Source: Candidatus Omnitrophota bacterium (GTDB taxonomy: Bacteria; Omnitrophota; Gorgyraeia; Zapsychrales; Aceulaceae). Taken from it: 64,000 nt of DNA. Shown here piece after piece: positions 114-62,075 of this stretch. The notes under the pieces were generated by a model that saw only the letters and a list, made by a program, of their open reading frames with translations, was not told the DNA's origin and ran no database searches. The position numbers and the translations under genes are program-made. Numbering within the stretch: position 1 is the stretch's first letter; each line of letters starts with the position of its first letter. The stretch spans positions 74,807 through 138,806 of the forward strand of contig JAQUUP010000002.1 of the NCBI GenBank assembly GCA_028693815.1. Reading direction: 5' to 3'.

Positions 114-3100
114 ATGTTCCAGATAAAAAAGAAATATAAATCACGTCTTTTTTTTAGGGCCATTTGTCTATTTGTCCTTATAGCCTTTGGGGAAAATACT
201 GTGTTCGCGCCGTATATTCCTAAAGCTAGAGCACAGAGCGTTCTGGCGCTTCCTACGGCTGGCACCATGGTGTCTTTGAGCCCAGCATTTACGCCGACCA
301 TTCTTCGTGGAATAAGAGTTTATCCTGATAATCCCCTAAAATTTGATTTCATTGTTGACGCGGGAGATGAAATAATTGAAAACGAGGAAGCTTCGACTCG
401 CCTTGCTGGGCCGCAAGGCTCACGGAGTAAATTCGCGCAGGCTGACTTGACGAAAGCTGAAGGCTTTCGTAAGTCAGGCGCTCATTTAAAAGCCGAATCA
501 GAGAAGTTAATCAAATACTTTTTAGCTGCTCTAACGATTCCTGAAGACAATCTCTGGGTTAACTTGTCTCCTCATGAACAAGATCGAATCATTCCTGATA
601 GTCTTGGTTCTACAGATATGGGCACAGACATGCTCGCTCAAGACTATATCTTAAAGCAAATCACAGCATCTCTGATATACCCAGAAGATGAACTTGGCAA
701 ACAGTTCTGGCAAGAAATCTATAAGAAAGCCTATGAAGAATATGGAACCACCAATATCCCAGTGGATACCTTTAATAAAGTTTGGATTATGCCTCAAAAG
801 GCAGAAGTGTATGTGAAAGAAGATAGGGCTTTTGTGGTGGAATCAAGGTTGAAGGTTATGCTGGAGGAAGACTACGTTGCATTAACACGCGCAAGTGAAA
901 CGTTAAGCGTGAAACGTGAAACGCAAGACTCTTCACAAGATACGCTTCACTCTTCACAGAATAAATTAGCTTCTGATGTTGTCCGTGAAATTATCATCCC
1001 AGCCCTCGAAAAAGAAGTTAACACAGGAAAAAACTTTGCTCAACTTTGTCAAATTTACAATTCTCTCATCCTAGCCTATTGGTTTAAGAACAATCTAAAA
1101 GAGTCGATTGTAAACAAAGTCTATTCTGACCAAAGCAAGATTAAGGGAGTGGACACCAAAGATGTCTCACAAGATATTTATGATCAGTATGTTGATTCTT
1201 TTAAAAAAGGCGTCTGTGACTTTATCAAGGTGGAATATGACGAATATGATCATAAGAATATTCCACGAAAATATTTTTCTGGGGGAGAAACATTCAGTAA
1301 GTTCTACATGAAAGAAGCTGTTAAGTTTACCGATGGCGATACCCCCGACGGAAAAAGAGCTGGGAGTGCGATCGGAACAGCTATTAAGAAATCAGCTTTA
1401 GTTGCTCTAGTCACATTTCAGATGCTTGGTCTTAGGCAAGATTCGAGTAGATTTGTCCTAATGACTCCGGAGCACAAATGGATGAAAGAACATTTACCTG
1501 TCCCGCTTTATAATTATTCAACTTTAAAAGATTTTATCCCAGGAAAACAATGGTTTGAATGGGTTAAAGAATATCCATCTGTAGCTCTTGATTATTACCC
1601 GGAATTAAAGGATTTTGCTTTCAAAAGACAATGGGTTAAATGGATGAAAGAATACCCGTATATAGCTCTTGATAATTATCAAGAATTAAAGGATTTTGTT
1701 TCAGAAAAACAATGGATTGAGTGGGCAAAAGAATATCCATACGCAGCTCTTGATAATCATAGAGACCTTCAAGAGCTTGATTCTTCTGATAAGTTTTTTG
1801 ATGGTTTAGCCGAACAGAACCCTATTGAGGCTTTTCAAACAAGATATAAGGCGTATGTAAATTTAACAGAAAAAGAGCTGCAGGATGAATGTAGAAAAGC
1901 TGTAGCTAGAGATTTTTTAGATTTCTTTAAGCTTCCTAATAATGAAAACAATCTTGAGCGTGCAGTAAATCTTGTTATTCATTTAGAAGATCATGTTGCT
2001 GATACAATTGTTTTTGGTCGAGGCATAAAAGTTATTAATTTAGCAAATATTGAATCTCAATTTAGCTTGGAAGAAATGGAAGCTTTTGAGATTAGCGCCA
2101 ATGTTGATTCGTCAGATATAAAATCATTTAAAGGCGGAACAGAAGAAATTATTAATCGTCTGATAGAGCGAATAGAAAAGACTCCGATTGGAGCGCTTAG
2201 AATCTTTTATAGAGGACATGCAAACAAAAAAAATTTGGGGCCAGGTAATTTTACGTATCTTCAATATAAAAGACTTGGTGATGCTCTCATAGCTCGTGGA
2301 GACGTAGAGCATGTTATGTTTTTAAATTTTAGTTGTTTTTCTTTTAATTTTATTGAAAATCTCGCAAGTTATTTACGTTCTCAAGGAGTAGCTTCTCAGG
2401 CAATGTTTTCAGATGCTGATGAAAACAGAAAAAGTTTTGGCCGTGAATCTGACTTTTTTCAATCGCTTGTACGTCACCATAAGCCCGGAACGCCTGTAAG
2501 AATGCGTGTTTTCTGGGAAGCTCGAGAGTTAAATGTTCTTAAAAAACAAAAACCAGCAATTTTCTATTCTTTTGATACAAAATATCTTAAAGAAGTAATT
2601 CCTTTGTATTTTCCAAAAGTTGATGTTGAAAAGCTTGATTTCCCATATACGAAACCAATAGGAGACCTGCTTAAAAAACCGAATATTCAAAATTCTAATA
2701 ATTTTAGGATATTAGATCAAAGCTATTATGCAATTCTCAATGGCGCAATTGCGCCTATAAAATTACACTTTAACGGCTTTGGAATGGAGAATACTTATTA
2801 TGCAACAAATTTTGATGATCCAAGAGCTTATAAAACTAAGAGTCAAGAACAAATTGATGAAGAGCAAGATTTTGCTCAAGTGCAGATAGAAAAGCGAAAA
2901 CAGAAAAGCGAGAAATATGCAAGTCAGAGAAATCAATCGATTTTTAAAAACCAAATTTCTTCATCAGCGCTGGAAACACAAACCAAGGCAGCAAGCTCAA
3001 CAATAATACCTCAGGATAGAAAATCTCAGCAAAAAAATAATTTTCCAAAACCTATTTTTGGGGCTGTGCAGAAATTAGAGGATGATAAGTGGGTCGAATG

Positions 3101-6100
3101 GATTCCTTCACCTTCTCAAATTTCTGCTGAAAATACATTTTTTGTCGAGGGGTTGTCTTTTGAGCAAGTAAAAGAAAGAATTCAAGAACTTTATAAATCG
3201 GATATTTCTAAACCGATTCTTATTGAAGGAGCTAAGGAAGGTTTGGCTTTAGGAGGAAAATTAAAAAGTTTTATTGTTAATCTTGGTGGGGTTAAGCCTT
3301 TGAGGCGCAATGTTGCCCATGGTTTTGGTGAGAATGTGCGGGATCTTGATATTATGCTTGTTCCAGGTGGAAATGGGAATCCTAAAAAGATCGTTTTGAT
3401 CGGAAGAGATGAAAAAGGTGAAATGGTAGGGCTTCCGAGAATTTTTGATCAAGAAGCCAAGCGAACTTTAAGTTTAGTTGAATCTGTATACGACTCTTTT
3501 GAGCAGGGAGATTTCTTTGTTCATACTGGATTATTTTATTCGATGATGTCTGGAAAGATTTCTCCGGGTACTCCAATGCCAGAAAAGAAAGAGGATGGAA
3601 AATATAAGACTTTAAAAAAAGATACTTTTCATTCATTTGGATCTGGGCTTGATGGGTTGGGTATTAAAATTAAAAAGAGTCAAGGAGGGGCAGTTGAATC
3701 TGTTGATTTTATTGAAGAAACAAAAAAAATGTATGGTCAAACAGCTAAGCTTGATTTTGAGAGCTTAAGAATTCTTAGCTTAAGGGATCAGAAAATATCG
3801 GAAATAGAAAAGATTATTACTGGAGTCGATAACGGAACTTTTATTATTGAAGCTGACTTGGTGATGGGATCACGGGGAAGGCCTTCCGAAAATCTTTTGA
3901 AAATGATAAAAAAAGCAGAAAAAGGCAGTGGGAATTTTAATAATGATCGTTTTGGGTTATCAGATCTTGCAGTCTTTTTAGATCTTAAAATTATTAAAGA
4001 AAAAGGAAAACAAGCAAGATATTTCTTTATTGGATATGATGCGAAAGGAAAAGAGATCACGAATTATGAGCTAGATCTTGAGGCCGGAGAGCTTAAAAGG
4101 CCTAAGAGAGATCTTAAAAAGGAGATTGATCAGAAAATTATTGATATTATTGTTAATGCTAAACCAGGAACTTATGTTGTTGAGACAGGAAGTCGCTATA
4201 TAGGTGCTAGAGATACGGTTGTTCCTTCTTTGCCAATGGCAATTAAGAATTCGCGCGATTATAAGAAATTAGAGAATGAAAAGTCGCATCATTTTAAGTC
4301 TTTAGTTTCTTTGAGAATTGAGATTGTCATCGGCAAAAAGGGTGTTATTGAATATGCTATTATTGGATACGATTCCAATGGAAAAAAGCTCGGGCGCCAT
4401 ATTTGGGATTGGGAAGATGAGATATTTTCTGGAGGAAAAGTAAATTCTTCTGAGCAGATTGTACGCTTGATCATTCCCCATCTTAAGAAAAATCCTCTCA
4501 CGATTCAGCAAGTTAAGGAAATTTCGACAACAAGGATAGAAAGAAGAATGCTTTATGACAAAGAAACGCAGATGTGGACTTTATACAGAAATGATCCCAG
4601 AGGATATGGGAGGGCAGTAAGAGGCCTTGTTAAAGAAGAAATAGAATTTAAACAGAAGCTTTCTAAGAAAATTCTTTCCAAGCTTCCATCTAATTCGTTT
4701 ACGTATAGTCAAGAGCGTATTGAGCAAGTTGTTGAAACATTACTTTTGCTTAATGGTGGTTCTTTAAGATTCCTAGTTGAAAAAGGAGTTTTGACAGAGC
4801 AAAATGTTCAAGGAATAGAGTCTTTGAGTATGAACAAAATTGGTTTTTCAAAAGAACATGGAATTCATGTTGGCCTTCAGAAATTATTAGAAGGATACAA
4901 CACTAATCTAAACAAAAAATTTGTTAAGGATGTTGGAGGCAAGAAAAAAATCATAGATCGGCTTATTGAAACGCACCTTTTCCCCGCAGACTATGTTTTA
5001 GAGCTTCACAAACGTTTTGGCAGGCTCGTCACACCGAAGGTGTTTTATGAGTCGTTTTTAAAATCAGAACCTGAGAAATGGCTTGAAGAGCAGTCCCGAT
5101 TAGAGGAAGAAAAAAGGGTAAGGCAAAAAGAGGAGCAAAGGAAGTTAAAGGAAGCAGAAAGAGCAAGGAAGGCAGAGGAAGCAGAGGAGCAAAAGAAGCT
5201 AAGGGAAGCAGAAAGAGCAAGGAAGGCAGAGGAAGCAGAGGAGCAAAAGAAGCTAAGGGAAGCAGAAAGAGCAAGGAAGGCAGAGGAGCAAAGGAAACTT
5301 AAGGAAGGAGCGAGGGCAAAGAGGGTAAACCGTGCGCAGAGAGTTTTTAGAAAAATAATAATAAAGATTTTGCAGAAATTAGAAAAAGAAGTATCCGGGA
5401 AGCCTCGCTATGAATTTAAAGAGTTATGGCAGCTTTTTGATTTTGTTCAAAGCATAGAAGAGAATCTTGAGCTTTCAGGTAATGAAGATACTCGAAACAT
5501 ATTTTTAAATAAAGCTCTTGGATATATTCCAAGTGAGAAAGATGACAGAATTGAACCACATAATTTTTATAATTCAGATTATTTTGCAGAAGAACCATTT
5601 ATGAGATCGATCGTAGAATATGCCATTAATGAATCTCCTTTTTTAATTGTTGATCAGGTTGATAGTGATCAAATGGATGTTTTGACCCAAGAAGTTGTTC
5701 AGCAGTATACAGGTTTCAGCAAGAGAGCCTTGGTTGTTTTGCCTGATGGAGAAGGCGCGATATTAAATGGTAATTCTGGTGTCTTAAAAGTTCGCAAAAG
5801 TCAAATGTATGAAGATATTGAGAGTTATTTGTCGAGAGCAGATATTGGCAACAATGGCAAAGGTTTTGATTTGATTATCATTCCTGAGGCAGAAAATATG
5901 AGCTTAGAGGAAGTATTATTTTTATCTCAGTTTTTTAAGAAAAATGGAAATGGCAATGGTAACGGTATAAGAAAAATTATTTTTATGACTAAGGACATAG
6001 CGGCTGAGAATGCAAGCGGTGAAAAAAGCGGGGTAGAATTTTTTAGGGAATATGGTATTTCTGGCAATATTGTAAAAAGAAGTTCTTCTTCTTTATCCAA

Positions 6101-6395
6101 GGAGGTAAAACAGCAAATTGGTATTCTTTTGCTTGAGTATGCAAGTACATGGCGCGGTACAGCAATTGTTGGAAAAACAGGATTTCTTTCTTTTCTAAAA
6201 GAGAAATGGGGTTGTGATTACGATCAGTTTTCAGAAATATTGGGCATTACTAAAAAACAGGCGAAGTCTTTTATTGAAAAAAAGGGTTCAGTTGGGATGA
6301 GTCCTAAAAATAGATATATTTTCTTAGAACGGTTTGGTTTTGTGGAAGATTTCGAAGATTATTTGTTAACCTCGCAAAGCCCAAAAAAGAAATAA
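114..6395 (+). CDS. Giant hypothetical protein, 2093 aa. It has an N-terminal signal/TM segment, three 27-aa tandem repeats (KQWxEWxKEYPxxALD), a charged coiled-coil repeat (EAERARKAEEAEEQKKLR x3), an NGNGNGNG tract and internal duplicated modules. No recognisable catalytic domain.
   Basis: Single uninterrupted ORF from the six-frame track. Hydrophobic N-terminus LFFRAICLFVLIAFG; repeats visible in the translation and the DNA. Confidence 0.7.
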   Translation: MFQIKKKYKSRLFFRAICLFVLIAFGENTVFAPYIPKARAQSVLALPTAGTMVSLSPAFTPTILRGIRVYPDNPLKFDFIVDAGDEIIENEEASTRLAGPQGSRSKFAQADLTKAEGFRKSGAHLKAESEKLIKYFLAALTIPEDNLWVNLSPHEQDRIIPDSLGSTDMGTDMLAQDYILKQITASLIYPEDELGKQFWQEIYKKAYEEYGTTNIPVDTFNKVWIMPQKAEVYVKEDRAFVVESRLKVMLEEDYVALTRASETLSVKRETQDSSQDTLHSSQNKLASDVVREIIIPALEKEVNTGKNFAQLCQIYNSLILAYWFKNNLKESIVNKVYSDQSKIKGVDTKDVSQDIYDQYVDSFKKGVCDFIKVEYDEYDHKNIPRKYFSGGETFSKFYMKEAVKFTDGDTPDGKRAGSAIGTAIKKSALVALVTFQMLGLRQDSSRFVLMTPEHKWMKEHLPVPLYNYSTLKDFIPGKQWFEWVKEYPSVALDYYPELKDFAFKRQWVKWMKEYPYIALDNYQELKDFVSEKQWIEWAKEYPYAALDNHRDLQELDSSDKFFDGLAEQNPIEAFQTRYKAYVNLTEKELQDECRKAVARDFLDFFKLPNNENNLERAVNLVIHLEDHVADTIVFGRGIKVINLANIESQFSLEEMEAFEISANVDSSDIKSFKGGTEEIINRLIERIEKTPIGALRIFYRGHANKKNLGPGNFTYLQYKRLGDALIARGDVEHVMFLNFSCFSFNFIENLASYLRSQGVASQAMFSDADENRKSFGRESDFFQSLVRHHKPGTPVRMRVFWEARELNVLKKQKPAIFYSFDTKYLKEVIPLYFPKVDVEKLDFPYTKPIGDLLKKPNIQNSNNFRILDQSYYAILNGAIAPIKLHFNGFGMENTYYATNFDDPRAYKTKSQEQIDEEQDFAQVQIEKRKQKSEKYASQRNQSIFKNQISSSALETQTKAASSTIIPQDRKSQQKNNFPKPIFGAVQKLEDDKWVEWIPSPSQISAENTFFVEGLSFEQVKERIQELYKSDISKPILIEGAKEGLALGGKLKSFIVNLGGVKPLRRNVAHGFGENVRDLDIMLVPGGNGNPKKIVLIGRDEKGEMVGLPRIFDQEAKRTLSLVESVYDSFEQGDFFVHTGLFYSMMSGKISPGTPMPEKKEDGKYKTLKKDTFHSFGSGLDGLGIKIKKSQGGAVESVDFIEETKKMYGQTAKLDFESLRILSLRDQKISEIEKIITGVDNGTFIIEADLVMGSRGRPSENLLKMIKKAEKGSGNFNNDRFGLSDLAVFLDLKIIKEKGKQARYFFIGYDAKGKEITNYELDLEAGELKRPKRDLKKEIDQKIIDIIVNAKPGTYVVETGSRYIGARDTVVPSLPMAIKNSRDYKKLENEKSHHFKSLVSLRIEIVIGKKGVIEYAIIGYDSNGKKLGRHIWDWEDEIFSGGKVNSSEQIVRLIIPHLKKNPLTIQQVKEISTTRIERRMLYDKETQMWTLYRNDPRGYGRAVRGLVKEEIEFKQKLSKKILSKLPSNSFTYSQERIEQVVETLLLLNGGSLRFLVEKGVLTEQNVQGIESLSMNKIGFSKEHGIHVGLQKLLEGYNTNLNKKFVKDVGGKKKIIDRLIETHLFPADYVLELHKRFGRLVTPKVFYESFLKSEPEKWLEEQSRLEEEKRVRQKEEQRKLKEAERARKAEEAEEQKKLREAERARKAEEAEEQKKLREAERARKAEEQRKLKEGARAKRVNRAQRVFRKIIIKILQKLEKEVSGKPRYEFKELWQLFDFVQSIEENLELSGNEDTRNIFLNKALGYIPSEKDDRIEPHNFYNSDYFAEEPFMRSIVEYAINESPFLIVDQVDSDQMDVLTQEVVQQYTGFSKRALVVLPDGEGAILNGNSGVLKVRKSQMYEDIESYLSRADIGNNGKGFDLIIIPEAENMSLEEVLFLSQFFKKNGNGNGNGIRKIIFMTKDIAAENASGEKSGVEFFREYGISGNIVKRSSSSLSKEVKQQIGILLLEYASTWRGTAIVGKTGFLSFLKEKWGCDYDQFSEILGITKKQAKSFIEKKGSVGMSPKNRYIFLERFGFVEDFEDYLLTSQSPKKK
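1524..1766 (+). repeat. Intragenic tandem repeat, 3 x 81 nt, encoding LKDFxxxKQWxEWxKEYPxxALDxYxE.
   Basis: Three consecutive in-frame 27-aa units inside the giant ORF. Confidence 0.8.
5151..5290 (+). repeat. Intragenic tandem repeat, 54-nt unit x about 2.6 (gaagcagaaagagcaaggaaggcagaggaagcagaggagcaaaagaagctaagg), encoding a charged coiled-coil.
   Basis: Two exact adjacent 54-nt copies plus one partial. The antisense ORF 5029..5274 is an artefact of this repeat. Confidence 0.85.
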
Positions 6396-6400
6396 AGCCT

Positions 6401-7909
6401 TTGAGCGAGGATGCCTTTAATCTCTCGATTGTGGAAAAAATAGAAATGCCAAAAGTTCTGTATAGTCAGACGGAGGATTATCCGGGAAAAGAAGACTTTT
6501 TTATGATTAACCAATCTGGACCCGATACGTATCTGCCGATCAGAGAAAGCCTCCTTTTGATTAGTCCTCAGCAAGAGACGAGTTCGTCGATATTCTTGAC
6601 AGAAAAAAAGATCAATGCGCTTAGAAAGATTTTATCTAAAGAGGATTACGGCCGCTATGGAAGAATGAAATATTTCGAAGAGAGAATTTTGCCTGATTTA
6701 GAAGATATTTTTTCTGAGGTTTCTTTGTCAAAACCTGTTTTTATGGCTATTGAAAAAAAATTAACTGAACTTGCGAGAAATAATTTTTATCGGTTTGATT
6801 GGTTGATTTATGAATTACGAGAAGAAAGAAACAGATTAAAGAATATTTCTGAAAGCGAAGTTCAAAGTTTAATGGAATTGATTTTGAGCCGGACGCCTGA
6901 TCCTTCTAGCGAAAAAGATTGTTATGGTCCGAAGTATTACGGGGAAGGCCCGAATGATGATTTATATATTTGGTATAGCGGCTCAACTCAAGAGGCTGTT
7001 GATCAACTCAAGAATCTTGAATATTCTTGGAATGGAAAAAGCGTTTTAGAGATTGCGCCTGGACAAGATGGAGAATTTATTAATTGGGTTAAAAGTCAAG
7101 GTGCTGATGCTATGGCATCTGATAAAAGTTTTCGCGGAACACGCTGGGCGCGTCAAAAATATGGTGTTGAGTCAAAAAGAGCGGATATTCTCAATCTTTC
7201 ATTGTTAGGTGATAAAAAGTTTGATGTTATTTTTGCCGCTTCTGTTTTAAATTACGTCCTTGGAGATAATTATTTAGAAAAAGGATCAAAAGAAAAAGCA
7301 GATCAACTTATTAAAAGTTTACGGAGCGTGCTTGCCTCTGGCGGACTTTTATGTTTTGCATTTTCTGATAGAGAAGAAATGGATCAAAGGCGCTATGACA
7401 ATCGTATGCCTAAGCATATTGTTGAGAGTTTTACGCAGGCAGGTTTTGAAATCATTTCGGAGTATAAAGGTGGAGAAGTTATTATTTTGAAGGATATTGG
7501 CTCTGTTGCCGATTCTATGCAGAGTGAAAAGATTTTTTCGCTGACTGCGGATGCTGTGCAGGAAAGGCCTGACGGCCAGTCACAAGCCACAAGTCGTCAG
7601 TTACAAGATACGAATGACGATATGCCAAATGCGAATGACGAACTAAAAGGTGGCATTGATTTTAATGCCCAAAGTTTTGATATTAAAACTCAGGGTGATG
7701 AGATTGATTTTGATGTTCCATTAGAGCTTCAAAATATTGATTTTAATAATATTCAAGGATTTGTGCCGGTGATTATTGATATTGTGCCGATTACAAATAT
7801 ATTTTTTGTTTTAGGATTAAATGAAGAAGATTTTGAGAATGATAAAACCCGTTGGTCTGAGCGCCAGGATATTGATTACGATAAGCCGAAAGAAGAAAGT
7901 TTGATTTAG
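6401..7909 (+). CDS. Class I SAM-dependent methyltransferase-domain protein with an acidic C-terminal tail. Begins with TTG 6 nt after the giant-gene stop; an alternative in-frame ATG lies at 6446.
   Basis: MTase motif I VLEIAPGQDG, post-I acidic residue, motif DVIFAASVLNYV. C-terminus rich in D/E/N. Confidence 0.55.
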   Translation: MSEDAFNLSIVEKIEMPKVLYSQTEDYPGKEDFFMINQSGPDTYLPIRESLLLISPQQETSSSIFLTEKKINALRKILSKEDYGRYGRMKYFEERILPDLEDIFSEVSLSKPVFMAIEKKLTELARNNFYRFDWLIYELREERNRLKNISESEVQSLMELILSRTPDPSSEKDCYGPKYYGEGPNDDLYIWYSGSTQEAVDQLKNLEYSWNGKSVLEIAPGQDGEFINWVKSQGADAMASDKSFRGTRWARQKYGVESKRADILNLSLLGDKKFDVIFAASVLNYVLGDNYLEKGSKEKADQLIKSLRSVLASGGLLCFAFSDREEMDQRRYDNRMPKHIVESFTQAGFEIISEYKGGEVIILKDIGSVADSMQSEKIFSLTADAVQERPDGQSQATSRQLQDTNDDMPNANDELKGGIDFNAQSFDIKTQGDEIDFDVPLELQNIDFNNIQGFVPVIIDIVPITNIFFVLGLNEEDFENDKTRWSERQDIDYDKPKEESLI

Positions 7910-8024
7910 AGCATAAGAAAAAAAGAAGGCGTTTGAAGAAAAAAGGTTTTTTCCCTTGCTTTTACCAACGTATTCATAGTATAAATATAATTAGTTATAA
8001 TACATTTGATTTTGAAAGGGCAAT

Positions 8025-8501
8025 ATGAAGATGACAGATCAAGTATTCGGATATCAGCTACTTTTAGATTTGTATGGGTGTAAAGAAGGGGTTTGCGACG
8101 ATCTTTCTTTGTGCTATCAGTTTTTAGATGATATTGTGGGAGCTTTAGGTATGGAAAAACAAGCTCCACCAAATATATTTCGAAGTGATGCTACCCGTTT
8201 TCCAGATAAGGCTGGCCTTTCAGGTTGGGCGCCTTTGATTGAAAGCTCGATTGTGATTCATACCTTGACTCCTAAGAATTATATTTCTGTTGATGTTTAT
8301 TGTTGTAAATCTTTTAGTCGTCAAACGGCAATAGATATGTGTAATAAGTTCTTTGTTCCAAAAAAGATCGATGAGCAGTATATCGAGAGGGGGCTGGATT
8401 ATTTTAAAACAGATACGAATTATCACACGATTACTGTTGATAAGGAGGGTGAATTTCCAAAAGTTGTTATTGAGCGAAAAGATTTAGAGGTAGGGGTTTA
8501 A
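8025..8501 (+). CDS. S-adenosylmethionine decarboxylase proenzyme-like (pyruvoyl-dependent, SpeH/class 1 type).
   Basis: LDLYGC and the self-cleavage-site-like IESSIVIHTLTP resemble the FYEC...SESHLTIHTWPE of small bacterial AdoMetDCs. Size 158 aa. Confidence 0.5.
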   Translation: MKMTDQVFGYQLLLDLYGCKEGVCDDLSLCYQFLDDIVGALGMEKQAPPNIFRSDATRFPDKAGLSGWAPLIESSIVIHTLTPKNYISVDVYCCKSFSRQTAIDMCNKFFVPKKIDEQYIERGLDYFKTDTNYHTITVDKEGEFPKVVIERKDLEVGV

Positions 8502-8521
8502 AAAATTTTTTATTAATAGTT

Positions 8522-8559
8522 GGGGCTTTGTTCTAAGAACAAAGCCCCGTTTGTTTTTT
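8522..8559 (+). terminator. Rho-independent terminator ggggctttgttc-taa-gaacaaagcccc + gtttgtttttt.
   Basis: 12-bp perfect stem followed by a T-tract. Confidence 0.8.
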
Positions 8560-18013: not shown

Positions 18014-19585
18014 ATGTCAACTAATAAATATTCACATCACGACACCAGCAGAGGTATCCTTAAGTCAACATCGATTTTATCCTTAGGGACTTTTGGGTCG
18101 AGAGTTTTGGGGTTTGTCCGTGATGTAATTTTGGCTCGATTCCTTGGAACTGGTTTTCAGGCAGATGCTTTTTTTGTGGCATTTCGTATTCCTAATTTAT
18201 TTCGAGACGTGGTTGGTGAAGGTGGAATTAATTCTTCGGTTGTTCCTGTAATTTCGGAATATGCAGAGAAAAAAGAAAAAGAAGAATTATTGAAGTTTTT
18301 AAGCGTTGTTTTTGTGTTGGCAGCGATTGTTTTGAGCGTCATTACGATTTCAGGAATTGTTTTTGCCCCTATTATTGTGCGTGCGATTGCGCCTGGATTT
18401 GTGGTTGACAGTGAAAAGCTTAATTTAACGATTAAGTTGACGCGATTGATGTTTCCTTATTTAATTTTTATTAGCTTAACAGCGTATGGAGCAGGCATTC
18501 TTTATACATTAAGGTCTTTTGCTGTGCCGGCGTTTAGTCCGTGTCTTCTAAATATCTCAATTATAATCAGTGTTTTTGTTTCACTTAAAACAAAGATTGA
18601 CCCTGTTTTGTGCTTAGCGTTTGGTGTTTTAGTCGGTGGGATTTTGCAGCTTGCAGTGCAAGGGATTCCAATTTTTAAAAAGGGTATTCGTTTTAAGTGG
18701 CCTCGAACATTGCAGCATCCTGGCGCTAAAAAGATTGGAAAATTACTTTTACCGCGGTTATTGGGATCAGCCGTTTATCAATTAACGGTTTTTATTGATA
18801 CTTTTTGTGCGTCTTTGGCGATGATCGTTGGGGCTGGCGGAATTTCCGCGATTTATTATTCTAATCGTATTTTACAATTTCCTATGGGTCTTTTCGGTAT
18901 TGCACTTGCCTCTGCTCTTTTGCCTTCGATGTCAGGGTTTGCTGCGCGTAATGATTTTAAAGAGTTTAAACGGACATTCAATTTTGCCTTAAAAAGCATT
19001 TTATTTGTGATGTTGCCGATCAGCATATTCTTAATGTTTTTTTCTGTTCCGATCATCCGTCTGCTTTTTCAAAGGGGAGAGTTTGATATTTATTCAACAA
19101 CGATTACTTCCTCGGCGTTGCTGTTTTATTCGATCGGACTTTTTTGTTTTGCTGGAGTTAAGATTTTGGTGACATCTTTTTATTCGATTCAGGACACTAA
19201 GACGCCGGCAAAGACGGCGGGGTTCTGTTTGGTGATTAATGCGATGTTGAATTTTCTTTTGATGGGGCCTTTAAAGATTGGGGGGATTGCCCTGGCAAGC
19301 TCAATTGCAGCAACGATTAATTTTTCTATTTTGTTCTTTATTTTAAATAAACGCTTAAAGCATATTGGAGAAGGTTTCCTTGATTACGGGCTTAAAGTTC
19401 TTTTGGCGTCTATGGTGATGGGATCATTGTCATTATGGCTTTGGAATCTGGCAGATCGTATTCCAGAGATGATTCGTTTTTTTCTTGTTAGCTTCGTAAG
19501 TATTTTTGTTTTTTTCCAATCGTGCTATTTTCTAAAAATTTATCAAGCACAAAAAATAATCCAATGGATATTAAAAAAACCATAG
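18014..19585 (+). CDS. murJ: Lipid II flippase MurJ (MviN).
   Basis: N-terminus ILKSTSILSLGTFGSRVLGFVRDVILARFLGTG...ADAFFVAFRIPNLFR is the MurJ signature; 14 TM, 523 aa. Confidence 0.9.
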   Translation: MSTNKYSHHDTSRGILKSTSILSLGTFGSRVLGFVRDVILARFLGTGFQADAFFVAFRIPNLFRDVVGEGGINSSVVPVISEYAEKKEKEELLKFLSVVFVLAAIVLSVITISGIVFAPIIVRAIAPGFVVDSEKLNLTIKLTRLMFPYLIFISLTAYGAGILYTLRSFAVPAFSPCLLNISIIISVFVSLKTKIDPVLCLAFGVLVGGILQLAVQGIPIFKKGIRFKWPRTLQHPGAKKIGKLLLPRLLGSAVYQLTVFIDTFCASLAMIVGAGGISAIYYSNRILQFPMGLFGIALASALLPSMSGFAARNDFKEFKRTFNFALKSILFVMLPISIFLMFFSVPIIRLLFQRGEFDIYSTTITSSALLFYSIGLFCFAGVKILVTSFYSIQDTKTPAKTAGFCLVINAMLNFLLMGPLKIGGIALASSIAATINFSILFFILNKRLKHIGEGFLDYGLKVLLASMVMGSLSLWLWNLADRIPEMIRFFLVSFVSIFVFFQSCYFLKIYQAQKIIQWILKKP

Positions 19586-20811
19586 CACAAATTCCTCTTT
19601 CGAGCGGCGTGTACTTAATGAAATCGAAAAGAGGAGCAATCATCTATATTGGAAAAGCGGTTTGTTTACGTAAGCGCGTGCAGTCATATTTTCGAAAGAA
19701 AACGGATTCTCTTAAAACAGAAGCACTTGTTTCGGAAATTAATGACATTGATTATATTTTGACGTTAAGCGAAGCGGAAGCTTTGATTTTGGAAGCGAGC
19801 CTCGTAAAGAAATATAAGCCAAAATATAACATTGATTTAAAAGATGATAAAAGCTATCCGTTTATTCAGATGACGGATGAAGATTTCTCAAGAGTTTCGA
19901 TTGTGCGCCCGCGCCCTAAAGATGTTGGTAGAAAAATGTTTAAGATGTTTGGCCCGTACGTTAATGCTAAGTTGATTCGTGAGGCTTTGGGTGTGATCCG
20001 AAAGATTTTTCATTTTCGTACGTGTGCACATCTTCCCAAAAAAGCTTGCCTTGATTATCATATTGGCTTGTGTGATGCTCCGTGCATTAAAAATATTACA
20101 AAAACAGAATATCAAAAAATAATTCGGAATGTTTGTTTAATCTTAGAAGGAAAAAAGGAAAGCTTGTATCGTTTTCTTCGAAAAGAAATGGAGCAGGCTT
20201 CTCAAAATAAAGATTTTGAAAAAGCAGGAAAAATTCGTGATCAAATAAGAGCTATGGGCGCTTTGTATTCTGGCACGAAAGATATTAATTGCTTTAAAGA
20301 GGCAGAGCAACTTAAGCGCGTGCTTAATCTTTCTCGACGATTAGAACGTATTGAAGCATTTGATATTTCGAACACAATGGGTCAGCAGTCTGTTGGATCG
20401 ATGGTATCTTTTTTAAATGGAGTACCGGACAAAAAGAATTATCGGCGTTTTCGTATTCGTGAAACACAAGGCATTGATGATTTTAAGATGATTGCAGAAG
20501 TTGTTGGTAGGCGGTATCAGCGATTAAAAAAAGAGGCAGCTCTTTTTCCAGATTTGATTTTGATCGATGGAGGCAAAGGACAACTCTCGGCAGCTAAAGA
20601 AAAACTTGTGGAGTTGGATTTAAATATTCCTGTAATTTCTATTGCGAAAAGAAACGAAGAAATTTTTGTACCATACAAAAGAAATCCTGTGGTTCTTTCA
20701 AAGGATGCATTGGGTTTAAAGTTAATTCAGCGTATTCGAGATGAAGCGCATCGCTTTGCTGTTAATTATCATCGTTTGTTGCGATCTAAGAAGGTATTTA
20801 GTGAGAAATAA
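19564..20811 (+). CDS. uvrC: Excinuclease ABC subunit C (UvrC) with GIY-YIG, UVR and RNase H-like domains, but apparently lacking the C-terminal (HhH)2 domain at about 415 aa. Start set at ATG 19564, overlapping murJ by 22 nt.
   Basis: GVYLMKSKRGAIIYIGKAVCLRKRVQSYF (GIY-YIG); EKAGKIRDQIRAM (UVR); FDISNTMG...ILIDGGKGQ endonuclease domain. Confidence 0.8.
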   Translation: MDIKKTIAQIPLSSGVYLMKSKRGAIIYIGKAVCLRKRVQSYFRKKTDSLKTEALVSEINDIDYILTLSEAEALILEASLVKKYKPKYNIDLKDDKSYPFIQMTDEDFSRVSIVRPRPKDVGRKMFKMFGPYVNAKLIREALGVIRKIFHFRTCAHLPKKACLDYHIGLCDAPCIKNITKTEYQKIIRNVCLILEGKKESLYRFLRKEMEQASQNKDFEKAGKIRDQIRAMGALYSGTKDINCFKEAEQLKRVLNLSRRLERIEAFDISNTMGQQSVGSMVSFLNGVPDKKNYRRFRIRETQGIDDFKMIAEVVGRRYQRLKKEAALFPDLILIDGGKGQLSAAKEKLVELDLNIPVISIAKRNEEIFVPYKRNPVVLSKDALGLKLIQRIRDEAHRFAVNYHRLLRSKKVFSEK

Positions 20812-61394: not shown

Positions 61395-62028
61395 CAATAA
61401 TGGATACAAAGCTCAAATCAGACATTGCAGAATCTGCGGTTATTTTGAAGCTCCTCGAAAAAGGGTTTAATGTTCTAAAGCCTTTTGGTGATCGTCTTGC
61501 CTATGATCTTGCTATAGATCAAGAAGGACGATTAATTCGCATTCAAGTTAAAAGTGCATGGTATAGCAAAGATAAGAAAATGCATTTAGTGGATGCAAGG
61601 AGAACAAAAACAAACCGACGCAAAATGATTCGAAAGAAATATTCGAATCAAGATTTTGATTTTGCAATAATCTATCTTAGCGATAAGCAGGTTTTTTATA
61701 TTATGCCTGTAGAGGTTTTTAATAACTATGCTAGTAGCATTAGTTTTGTCGAGGAAGGTAAGCGGCAACGACCTCCAAAGTCAGCTAAATTTAGAGAGAG
61801 ATGGGATTTGTTGTCCTTTTGTGGGCTGCTAGTCCAGTAATGGATTAGTGAAACCTGTCAAATTCGGTGAAACCTTAACTGGCAATACCGAGCCAAGCCT
61901 AGCAGGAATGCTAGGAAGGTGTAGAGACTAGATGGCAGGCATCCTAACTCATCGAGAAGGATGAAGGTATAGTCCAGACCACAAACCTTGACCTAATGTT
62001 AGGGGCGGCGAAAGCCGTAGTTGGCAAG
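61395..62028 (+). mobile_element. Group I self-splicing intron (IC3-like) in the anticodon loop of tRNA-fMet, carrying an ORF.
   Basis: 3' part 61853..62028 contains GUCAAAUUCGGUGAAACCUUAA, CCGAGCCAAGC and GAAGGUGUAGAGACUAGAUGGCAGGCAUCCUAA, near-identical to the core P3-P7 strings of the Azoarcus tRNA-Ile and Anabaena tRNA-Leu introns. Ends in G; upstream exon ends in U. Confidence 0.85.
61400..61840 (+). CDS. Intron-encoded ORF of 146 aa, a putative PD-(D/E)xK homing endonuclease (I-Ssp6803I-like).
   Basis: YDLAID ... RIQVKS nuclease-like motifs. Same host gene as the PD-(D/E)xK homing endonuclease of the cyanobacterial tRNA-fMet intron. Starts 5 nt inside the intron. Confidence 0.55.
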   Translation: MDTKLKSDIAESAVILKLLEKGFNVLKPFGDRLAYDLAIDQEGRLIRIQVKSAWYSKDKKMHLVDARRTKTNRRKMIRKKYSNQDFDFAIIYLSDKQVFYIMPVEVFNNYASSISFVEEGKRQRPPKSAKFRERWDLLSFCGLLVQ

Positions 62029-62075
62029 CATAACCTGAAGGTCGCTGGTTCAAATCCAGTCCCCGCAACCATGTC

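Follow-up and report, generated by a model that had tools for sequence, protein, structure and literature searches.

Gene organization of the locus

A stretch of 64,000 nucleotides (nt) from contig JAQUUP010000002.1 of a Candidatus Omnitrophota bacterium contains two adjacent open reading frames, ORF1 and ORF2, which appear to be the two parts of one frameshifted gene belonging to a very large family of Omnitrophota proteins. The whole stretch is referred to as the window, and all features of the two-ORF locus lie on its + strand. ORF1 (114-6395) starts with ATG, encodes 2093 amino acids (aa) and covers the split gene from the head through the greater part of the cargo; over approximately the last 10-17 codons ahead of the stop it is read outside the ancestral frame. 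ORF2 (6401-7909) starts with TTG, encodes 502 aa and comprises the C-terminal part. The corresponding NCBI call (P0121) starts with GTG and has 492 aa. The initial annotation of this DNA had described ORF1 as a giant repeat-containing protein with an N-terminal signal sequence, followed 6 nt later by a TTG-started ORF. ORF1 is real, is repeat-rich and opens with a signal peptide, and all of the sequence features listed for it were found. ORF2 does lie downstream with a TTG start, but the spacing from the stop codon of ORF1 to the TTG is 5 bases.

ORF2 is in the -1 frame relative to ORF1, and the two open frames overlap by 82 nt because the ORF2 frame is already open from nt 6314. The ORF2 frame runs for 532 codons without a stop, compared with 6-11 stops per 100 codons in the off-frames. 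No Shine-Dalgarno (SD)-like sequence occurs upstream of the TTG, the ORF2 product lacks a signal peptide and no strong terminator is present between the two ORFs. A terminator-like hairpin with a T-run at 6-31 (11-bp stem with 5 G-C pairs, tail TTTATCGTCA) closes the upstream gene and marks where the transcription unit starts. The first strong terminator downstream is located at 8521-8549 (13-bp stem with 7 G-C pairs, T-run), after a speD-like gene at 8025-8501.

The ORF1 protein record (P0001) matches MDD3374293.1, an NCBI entry from a Candidatus Omnitrophica metagenome-assembled genome (MAG), with 100% identity. In NCBI, P0001 is named "MAP7 domain-containing protein" and P0121 "methyltransferase domain-containing protein". 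The NCBI start of the former is at V30, which strips ORF1 of the signal peptide that is common to all homologs.

Probable disruption of a single gene by a -1 frameshift

ORF1 and ORF2 are best read, from comparison of their sequences with an intact homolog, as one ancestral gene that was interrupted by a -1 frameshift and whose restored product has about 2,598 aa. This conclusion, taken together with the family architecture described below, is held with high confidence. The intact homolog, P0148, is a 3,824-aa family member with the N-module of the family at its start and the C-module at its end, and was found by local BLAST against proteins fetched through an exhaustive search. It aligns with restored residues 1987-2143 in a single gapless high-scoring segment pair that runs over the junction (49% identity, E 4e-41, local BLAST). 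The ORF1 tail alone matches P0148 residues 457-561 (E 7e-28) and the ORF2 head alone matches residues 562-615 (E 3e-9), the two matches abutting between residues 561 and 562. The gene of P0148, read in locus L080, is continuous at the junction site.

The distribution of the conserved ends points the same way. N-module and C-module each occur exactly once in the window, the former in ORF1 and the latter in ORF2; ORF1 lacks a C-module. As assembled, head and tail therefore lie in two frames and not in one polypeptide. Both modules are found in a single ORF in 110 of 120 family proteins and at 66 of the 76 control loci with a visible gene end.

The frameshift was mapped to 6337-6361, where the window is one base short relative to P0148. 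A switch-point scan against P0148, in which all positions were scored, gave its maximum of 378-379 at nt 6337-6361, and the distance between the conserved FGF and LAK is 29 nt in the window versus 30 nt in the P0148 gene. The interval contains no N, no homopolymer longer than 3 and no slippery heptamer. The restored in-frame reading over the lesion would be ...ERFGFVEDFE.LFVNLAKPKKEIKPLSEDAF..., and the truncated C-terminal peptide of ORF1 is ...DYLLTSQSPKKK. The lesion is recent or artefactual, because the ORF2 frame has kept 532 stop-free codons and the housekeeping genes of the window (LeuRS, MurJ and SecA) are full length. Translated from the assembled sequence, ORF1 would give a protein with head and cargo but no tail, and ORF2 would lack both a signal peptide and an evident start signal. 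The initial annotation had named frameshifts, seen in long reads, as something that would refute its view of the giant ORF, and the gene is indeed frameshifted.

A homopolymer sequencing error in the A6 run near the end of ORF1 was considered as the cause and rejected because the run lies downstream of the lesion, the in-frame gene of P0148 has A6 at this site as well and the housekeeping genes of the window are intact.

The ORF2 product had been proposed as a separate methyltransferase that may modify or partner with the ORF1 protein. Two genuine genes formed by natural fission, the second of them separately translated, would fit the two ORFs as assembled, the two NCBI proteins (P0001 and P0121), the intactness of the ORF2 frame over 532 codons and the clean two-gene arrangement of family locus L029, which has a 150-nt spacer with an SD-like sequence. 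This alternative is nevertheless unlikely. P0148 is gapless and collinear over the junction, and the ORF2 frame is homologous to P0148 already 5' of the ORF1 stop; the 5' end of ORF2 is therefore a truncated module and no gene start. The TTG is not preceded by an SD-like sequence, and NCBI picked another (GTG) start. ORF2 has no signal peptide, although the C-module otherwise occurs in proteins with a signal-peptide-like N-terminus (107/116). The methyltransferase module is internal to giant proteins in the relatives of ORF2, the closest of which hold it within proteins of 2,799-5,395 aa. An exhaustive HMMER search found the module inside or at the end of giant proteins; in the closest relative, the 5,096-aa P0122, it lies at residues 4697-5007 with 66% identity, followed by a C-module. 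P0123 (2799 aa) contains the module twice, and P0124 (5395 aa) also contains it. What was proposed as a modifier or partner is instead the C-terminal portion of the cargo, plus the tail, of the one ancestral gene; the C-module is in ORF2 and not in ORF1.

Programmed -1 ribosomal frameshifting as in dnaX and IS3, which would give a 2093-aa tailless product and a 2598-aa product with the methyltransferase and the C-module, is very improbable. A dnaX-like A_AAA_AAG heptamer is present at 6383-6389 in the -1 phase, two codons ahead of the ORF1 stop (the end of ORF1 reads ...CCA AAA AAG AAA TAA) and within the 82-nt overlap; a -1 shift there gives an open fusion with the expected peptide ...DYLLTSQSPKKEIKPLSED..., and in-phase slippery heptamers are uncommon, with 15 in 19,150 codons (P about 0.02 for the window). 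However, the fold 3' of the heptamer shows no stimulatory RNA structure (z 0.53, 145/200 shuffles fold as well), no SD-like element lies upstream of it, and 14 further in-phase copies of such heptamers are found within ordinary genes in the window. The decisive point is that homology to P0148 switches frame 25-50 nt upstream of the heptamer (score 379 versus 345-351 at the heptamer). Upstream of the A-run the ORF2 frame reads LFVNLAKPKK, similar to IFFGLAKPKK of P0148, whereas the ORF1 frame reads YLLTSQSPKK, which, with the switch lying upstream of the heptamer, is therefore not the conserved reading. The heptamer was rejected as shift site on the DNA of the P0148 gene and the scan of all switch points.

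Other split family loci were also examined as possible support for recoding. The frame-changing splits at L016, L032 and L070 all coincide with runs of N, that is, with scaffold gaps, and were discarded. Three further loci are split without a scaffold gap. L029 (1073-6133) consists of two genes separated by the 150-nt spacer with an SD-like sequence; the N-module is in the first gene, and the second opens with a region that reads as receiver-like and ends with the C-module. L055 (2412-7232) contains a single in-frame TAA, and L063 (6089-9664) contains two stops close together. The family may tolerate fission, or its genes may often decay.

The Omnitrophota head-and-tail family

In its architecture the restored protein is a typical member of a very large Omnitrophota family, referred to here as the head-and-tail family. 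Its members consist of a Sec-type signal peptide, an N-module of approximately 400 aa, a hypervariable modular cargo, a C-module of approximately 60 aa and an acidic tail. A homology search with ORF1 returned at least 2,943 proteins (protein clusters), nearly all covering 18-20% of the query. The part common to the ORF1 homologs is residues 1-400, which is present in 119/119 fetched homologs. The fetched homologs have 1,200-3,600 aa, and the family members seen range from 1.2 to 5.4 thousand aa. The Pfam range of the family cargo includes methyltransferases, PEP-utilising enzymes, enolase, PGK, GAPDH and phosphoglucomutase, as well as kinases, glycosyltransferases, GNAT, HAD and other domains.

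Among GTDB species representatives, more than 600 pattern matches were obtained and at least 582 loci were confirmed, and nearly all named records belong to Omnitrophota. Genomes carry several or many copies, and family genes often stand in tandem or in clusters: the 79 best loci, which measure up to 21 kb, contain 97 N-modules, and L011 and L020 lie about 10 kb apart on contig CAZYOA010000005.1. As many as 5 of these 79 loci come from one genome. The MAG from which the window derives has at least 7 paralogs among the top 120 matches. The initial annotation had placed ORF1 among giant ORFs of Omnitrophota-like lineages and suggested looking for homologous giant ORFs. The window is of Omnitrophota, as shown by the identity of P0001 with MDD3374293.1, long ORFs are documented for this phylum, and the search uncovered a large Omnitrophota family.

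The N-module and C-module are absent from Pfam and NCBIfam. The Omnitrophota papers searched contain no mention of the head and tail modules, and the motif strings were found in no relevant paper. Within the literature searched, the family-wide head-and-tail signature and the embedded C13-like domain described below are apparently undescribed so far.

Head, repeats and cargo modules

The Sec-type signal peptide is encoded at 114-236 (aa 1-41) and consists of a basic n-region (KKKYKSR), a hydrophobic core and the motif ARA↓Q; the hydrophobic segment at aa 12-30 has a Kyte-Doolittle value of 1.76. All homologs have the basic n-region and A-x-A↓Q motif of a Sec signal peptide, and an N-terminus of the same type was found in 107/116 members. 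The N-module follows at 237-1424 (aa ~42-437) with the pattern LPxxGxMVxLSPxFxPxxLRGI...WVNLSP...AQDYxLKQ...PRKYFSGG. It is recognised in ORF1 by its hidden Markov model (HMM) at E 2.7e-185 and shows 50-85% identity to 78 homologs, with 43 invariant columns. No relatives of the N-module were found in Pfam, NCBIfam or the PDB, and its fold has no structural relative.

The cargo of the restored protein is ordered as 27-aa repeats, clan-CD domain, triplicated module, charged coiled coil, junction module and class I S-adenosylmethionine (SAM)-dependent methyltransferase. The three 27-aa repeats (1524-1766, aa 471-551; LKDFxxxxQWxxWxKEYPxxALDxxxE) start at aa 471, 498 and 525 with an exact period of 27 (z 14.6 and 19.6 versus shuffles). 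They are helical and lie upstream of the peptidase module as in P0003, which carries a long array of related repeats. A triplicated module of ~110-130 aa with the motif xxYxxIGYDxxGKxx is encoded at 3345-4463 (aa ~1078-1450). Two of its copies are duplicated modules of ~111 aa, with YFFIGYDAKGKEI at aa 1303 and YAIIGYDSNGKKL at aa 1414 (z 8.6), and they are preceded at about aa 1078 by the third copy, which is weaker (z 5.6 by pairwise alignment and shuffles). The triplicated module has no Pfam match. Three charged units of 18 aa, EEQ(R/K)KL(K/R)EAERARKAEEA, are encoded at 5130-5291 (aa 1673-1726) and are predicted to form a coiled coil. This E/K/R repeat is probably the source of the spurious NCBI name "MAP7 domain-containing": the MAP7 model does not match, no Pfam family matches at E <= 0.1 over the whole of ORF1, and lenient scans gave only weak low-complexity matches in the charged region. 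A low-complexity NG linker, NGNGNGNG, is encoded at 5943-5966 (aa 1944-1951). The junction-spanning module (6072-6541, restored aa 1987-2143) is collinear with P0148 457-615, and its stretch GFLSFLKEKWGCDYDQFSEILGITKKQAKSF resembles, on reading, a helix-turn-helix motif.

Pfam and NCBIfam found nothing in ORF1, and lenient Pfam scans of six cargo segments and of the peptidase module returned noise. No relative was detected for the cargo at aa 880-1986, and tblastn of the cargo against the 79 family loci gave no match. Word-indexed searches for cargo homologs returned the self-match only, and their negatives are unreliable because each missed another protein that is 100% identical.

The cargo modules are as a rule set apart by short Ser-rich linkers (ISSSAL, RSSSSL and ETSSSIF; module boundaries at aa 949, aa 1990 and ORF2 aa ~60). 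The relatives P0122, P0124 and P0016 have the linkers "SSSP", "ASSS" and "VSSPV" between modules. Such linkers may be flexible connections or processing sites.

Clan-CD peptidase-like module

The segment of ORF1 encoded at 1779-2753 (aa 556-880) is predicted to adopt the clan-CD (caspase/hemoglobinase) fold of cysteine peptidases. The modelled fold is of the legumain/glycosylphosphatidylinositol (GPI)-transamidase-like type and carries a conserved His/Cys dyad with putative activity. The putative catalytic residues are His702 (nt 2217-2219) and Cys741 (nt 2334-2336), which are 39 residues apart and invariant in 8/8 sequences. H702 and C741 follow the model strands E140-146 and E179-185, respectively, in the order of beta-strand and then residue that is seen in clan CD, and they align with GHGG/IDTC of GPI8 and with NHGG/EAC of legumain. 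The ORF1 module thus resembles legumain and the GPI-anchor transamidase (C13, clan CD) in its caspase/hemoglobinase fold and His-then-Cys order, but it shows only 8-13% identity to them, has no Peptidase_C13 match and is embedded in a giant bacterial protein. Only 7/119 family members carry the module. The statement of the initial annotation that ORF1 has no recognisable enzymatic domain therefore stands for Pfam and NCBIfam and fails for structure, in which residues 556-880 have a clan-CD peptidase fold with an invariant His/Cys pair.

Methyltransferase module and C-module of ORF2

The methyltransferase cargo module of ORF2 (6587-7510, ORF2 aa ~63-370) consists of a helical extension and a class I SAM-dependent methyltransferase fold. 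Pfam Methyltransf_11 (PF08241) matches aa 216-319 (nt 7046-7357) with 29.8 bits against a cut-off of 21.2 (E 9.4e-7). The SAM motif I site reads LEIAPGQDG in ORF2, P0122 and P0123; it is conserved and atypical compared with the canonical GxGxG.

The C-module, GGIDFNAQSFDIKTQGDEIDFDVPLELQNIDFNNIQGFVPVIIDIVPITNIFFVLGL, is encoded at 7640-7849 and is followed by an acidic tail up to 7906 (ORF2 aa ~414-502 for both). It is the only copy in the window and is recognised by its HMM at E 7.3e-28. The family consensus of ~60 aa is GGIDLNxxxLDLQIKRDGxGxPLPxxxQPIxxMxIxGFxPVIINIxPVxNLPxLLGL, and the short signature GGIDFN...GFxPVIINIxPV...LLGL is present in ORF2. The module stands at the end of 110/120 family proteins, with a short, often acidic tail after it. 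An exhaustive search with ORF2 gave 690 matches, mostly to the C-module, which is C-terminal where the matched protein is long. In the restored protein only the signal peptide and the C-module core (Kyte-Doolittle 2.17) are strongly hydrophobic. With 2-3 conserved prolines and no basic residues after it, the core resembles an element for sorting or assembly more than it does a transmembrane anchor.

Proposed function and topology

The restored protein would cross the cytoplasmic membrane by the Sec pathway, as suggested by its positively charged n-region, hydrophobic core and A-x-A↓Q motif. The shared head and tail would then serve as family-wide handles for a later step, such as anchoring in the envelope or at the surface, or delivery to another cell, either host or prey. 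Effector action would reside in the cargo modules, and processing of the polyprotein or of other members of the family may be the task of the clan-CD domain. In 75/116 members no hydrophobic segment occurs between the N-module and the C-module, and the cargo of these members should therefore leave the cytoplasm. Export and effector action are compatible with published views in which long Omnitrophota proteins are effectors of host-dependent cells, either exported or associated with the membrane (bioRxiv 10.1101/2023.11.21.568195; 10.64898/2026.06.07.730766). The functional mechanism itself, in which head and tail would serve to target exchangeable effectors, is tentative. The best overall explanation of the locus, namely one split gene of the head-and-tail family with the export and effector reading included, is judged likely.

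Several points weigh against this explanation. P0148 is the only homolog that spans the junction, and P0001 and P0121 come from the window's own assembly and are thus not independent. A tolerated two-protein state is possible because clean splits of family genes occur elsewhere (L029, L055 and L063). The frameshift is either an assembly or consensus error, the real gene being intact, or a genuine very recent mutation. The clan-CD module has no Pfam match at E <= 5 (Peptidase_C13, C14, C11 and CHAT included), and the matches of PDB sequence profiles to C13 enzymes are sub-threshold (E 0.18-1.4). The N-module has no structural relative. Cargo that depends on SAM, ATP or NAD is hard to reconcile with action outside a cytoplasm; it would either act inside another cell or face the cytoplasm of the producer in those members that have a second hydrophobic segment after the N-module. 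Such members make up 26%, and their cargo might lie in the producer's own cytoplasm.

In another topology of the same gene, the N-module would lie between the signal peptide and a second hydrophobic segment and be the only part beyond the membrane, and the cargo would remain in the cytoplasm of the producer as part of a membrane-anchored multi-enzyme protein. This would suit cargo that needs cofactors of the cytoplasm, namely SAM in this protein and ATP, NAD or CoA in its paralogs. A hydrophobic segment occurs within 110 aa after PRKYFSGG in 30/116 members, the ORF1 segment KKSALVALVTFQMLGL is the counterpart of that of P0006, and a 2026 preprint interprets many of the long proteins of Omnitrophota as anchored in the membrane, with their domains in the cytoplasm (10.64898/2026.06.07.730766). 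The ORF1 segment is, however, below both hydropathy thresholds, and 75/116 members have no such segment. Where present, the segment precedes an A-x-A-Q-like motif that looks like a further cleavage site, and the conserved C-module is left unexplained by a cytoplasmic cargo. This topology is a rather unlikely alternative to the export of the cargo.

The second segment was described in the 30/116 members that have it. It is signal-peptide-like, with basic residues, ~15-22 hydrophobic residues and often the A-x-A-Q-like motif, and occurs in P0002, P0003, P0004, P0006, P0007, P0009, P0022, P0027, P0037 and P0044, among others; the head is thus flanked by two similar hydrophobic elements. In ORF1 the segment KKSALVALVTFQMLGL is weak and lies at aa ~417-441 (window ~1362-1436).

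A non-enzymatic giant surface protein of structural or adhesin type, with the repeats and the coiled coil as its functional parts, is quite unlikely. Repeats, coiled coil and signal peptide are present, and a role in adhesion has been suggested for some of the giant ORFs of Omnitrophota (PMC10066038), but no adhesin, dockerin, discoidin, Ig-like or other binding domain was found in Pfam or NCBIfam, lenient thresholds included, and the standard adhesin domains allowed for in the initial annotation do not explain the ORF. In addition, a clan-CD fold with a conserved dyad and a methyltransferase are present, and the paralogs carry many different enzymes.

Comparison with known systems

Omnitrophota are documented to carry long ORFs whose function is poorly understood (PMC10066038; bioRxiv 10.1101/2023.11.21.568195). 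The published long proteins have 10,000 aa and more, up to 147,155 aa; the PF08241 methyltransferase comes first in their largest Pfam module, which comprises 137 proteins, and C39 and S8 peptidases are present, for which polyprotein cleavage has been proposed (10.1101/2023.11.21.568195; 10.64898/2026.06.07.730766). The long multi-enzyme or "Archaeovorin"-type proteins of West-Roberts et al. are from the same phylum and share with the restored protein a signal peptide, an N-terminal region without identifiable domains, unrelated enzyme domains along one polypeptide and few annotatable domains. In contrast, the restored protein has about 2.6 thousand aa and not tens of thousands, and contains two strongly hydrophobic segments and not many transmembrane helices. 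The N-module and C-module are unmentioned in those texts, and the peptidases there are C39/S8, whereas here the peptidase is of clan CD.

MARTX and large clostridial toxins offer an analogy only: conserved ends flank exchangeable effectors, which an internal clan-CD (C80) peptidase could release. The cargo proteins of the type IX secretion system (T9SS) are similar in having a signal peptide, variable cargo, a short conserved C-terminal module and many paralogs per genome. The clan-CD sortase PorU processes T9SS cargo, and a clan-CD enzyme is likewise associated with the head-and-tail family. However, the family has an N-module of ~400 aa that T9SS cargo lacks, and no T9SS genes were identified here. 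Sorting and adhesin models (T9SS C-terminal domain, PEP-CTERM, autotransporter and RTX) gave no Pfam or NCBIfam match in ORF1, ORF2 or the segments.

Palindromic cassette and neighbouring genes

An in-frame palindromic cassette of 108 nt (36 codons) is present at 393-500 in a loop of the N-module and encodes ...SRSKFAQADLTKAEGFRKSGAHLK.... It is a near-perfect palindrome (DNA fold z -4.28, 0/200 shuffles as stable) with a GC content of 0.54, compared with 0.36 in ORF1. The cassette peptide, KFAQADLT...RKSGAHLK, also occurs in P0002, where its site is the same, and in P0011, P0016 and P0027, where it sits at another site, and a DNA copy with 86% identity is found at 625-688 of L004 (Ca. Aceula lacicola). 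Other short cassettes, SETLSVKRETQDSSQDTLHSS, SGQRIADSN.KDLNAKRSTL and EKSKEDRREKIEDRK, recur in variable loops of different paralogs. Rickettsia palindromic elements are in-frame palindromic insertions in protein-coding genes. The cassette at 393-500 resembles them in its length of ~100 nt, a multiple of three, in its in-frame position in a tolerant loop and in its occurrence in different genes and at different sites. It differs from them in phylum and sequence, and the 5 protein-level copies and 1 DNA copy seen are all in the family N-module.

The speD-like gene directly 3' of ORF2 (8025-8501, +) encodes an AdoMet-decarboxylase-like protein that scores 57.2, below the NCBIfam equivalog cut-off of 75.65. 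It has promoter-like sites of its own at 7962-8001 and ends at the strong terminator at 8521-8549. Neofunctionalised SpeD homologs are reportedly the subject of one paper.

A short gene of the MGMT family at ~20812-21109 (+), with the active-site motif PCHRV, contains an in-frame TAG at 20882-20884 (...IPFGQTRSY(stop)WVAEKIGKPKAARAVG...) and is a second disrupted gene in the window, by a substitution-type stop. The uvrC ORF at 19522-20811 (+) encodes 429 aa versus a model of 574 positions and gives two matching stretches, the best of which covers model positions 2-228; the ORF seems to lack its usual C-terminal part. A complete group I intron was found at 61805-62004 (+) with an Rfam score of 70.9 bits. 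The 3' half of a tRNA, with the T-arm GGTTCAAATCC and the acceptor, can be read at ~62035-62070, where ARAGORN calls no tRNA, and a 146-aa ORF at 61400-61840 abuts the intron. Together these features may represent a tRNA gene interrupted by the intron, whether or not an ORF for a homing endonuclease belongs to it.

Implications

For annotation, two database entries named "MAP7" and "methyltransferase" are pieces of one frameshifted gene. The ORF1 entry has a wrong start, by which the signal peptide is lost, and its clan-CD domain has been missed. The locus leads to a family-level signature in which a fixed head and a fixed tail surround freely exchanged enzyme cargo.

Head and tail could represent a new, Omnitrophota-specific sorting or delivery system for hundreds to thousands of cofactor-dependent enzyme cargoes, with clan-CD domains as its processing enzymes, although this broader proposal is speculative and held at low confidence. 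If it were true, the cargoes (methyltransferases, kinases, glycolytic and sugar-nucleotide enzymes) would presumably be brought onto or into host or prey cells, the embedded legumain/GPI-transamidase-like domains would provide a processing or transpeptidase step, and the present locus would be one recently broken cargo gene. For the targeting and site of action of long multi-enzyme proteins in these host-dependent nanobacteria, the short conserved tail and the defined head would offer concrete handles.

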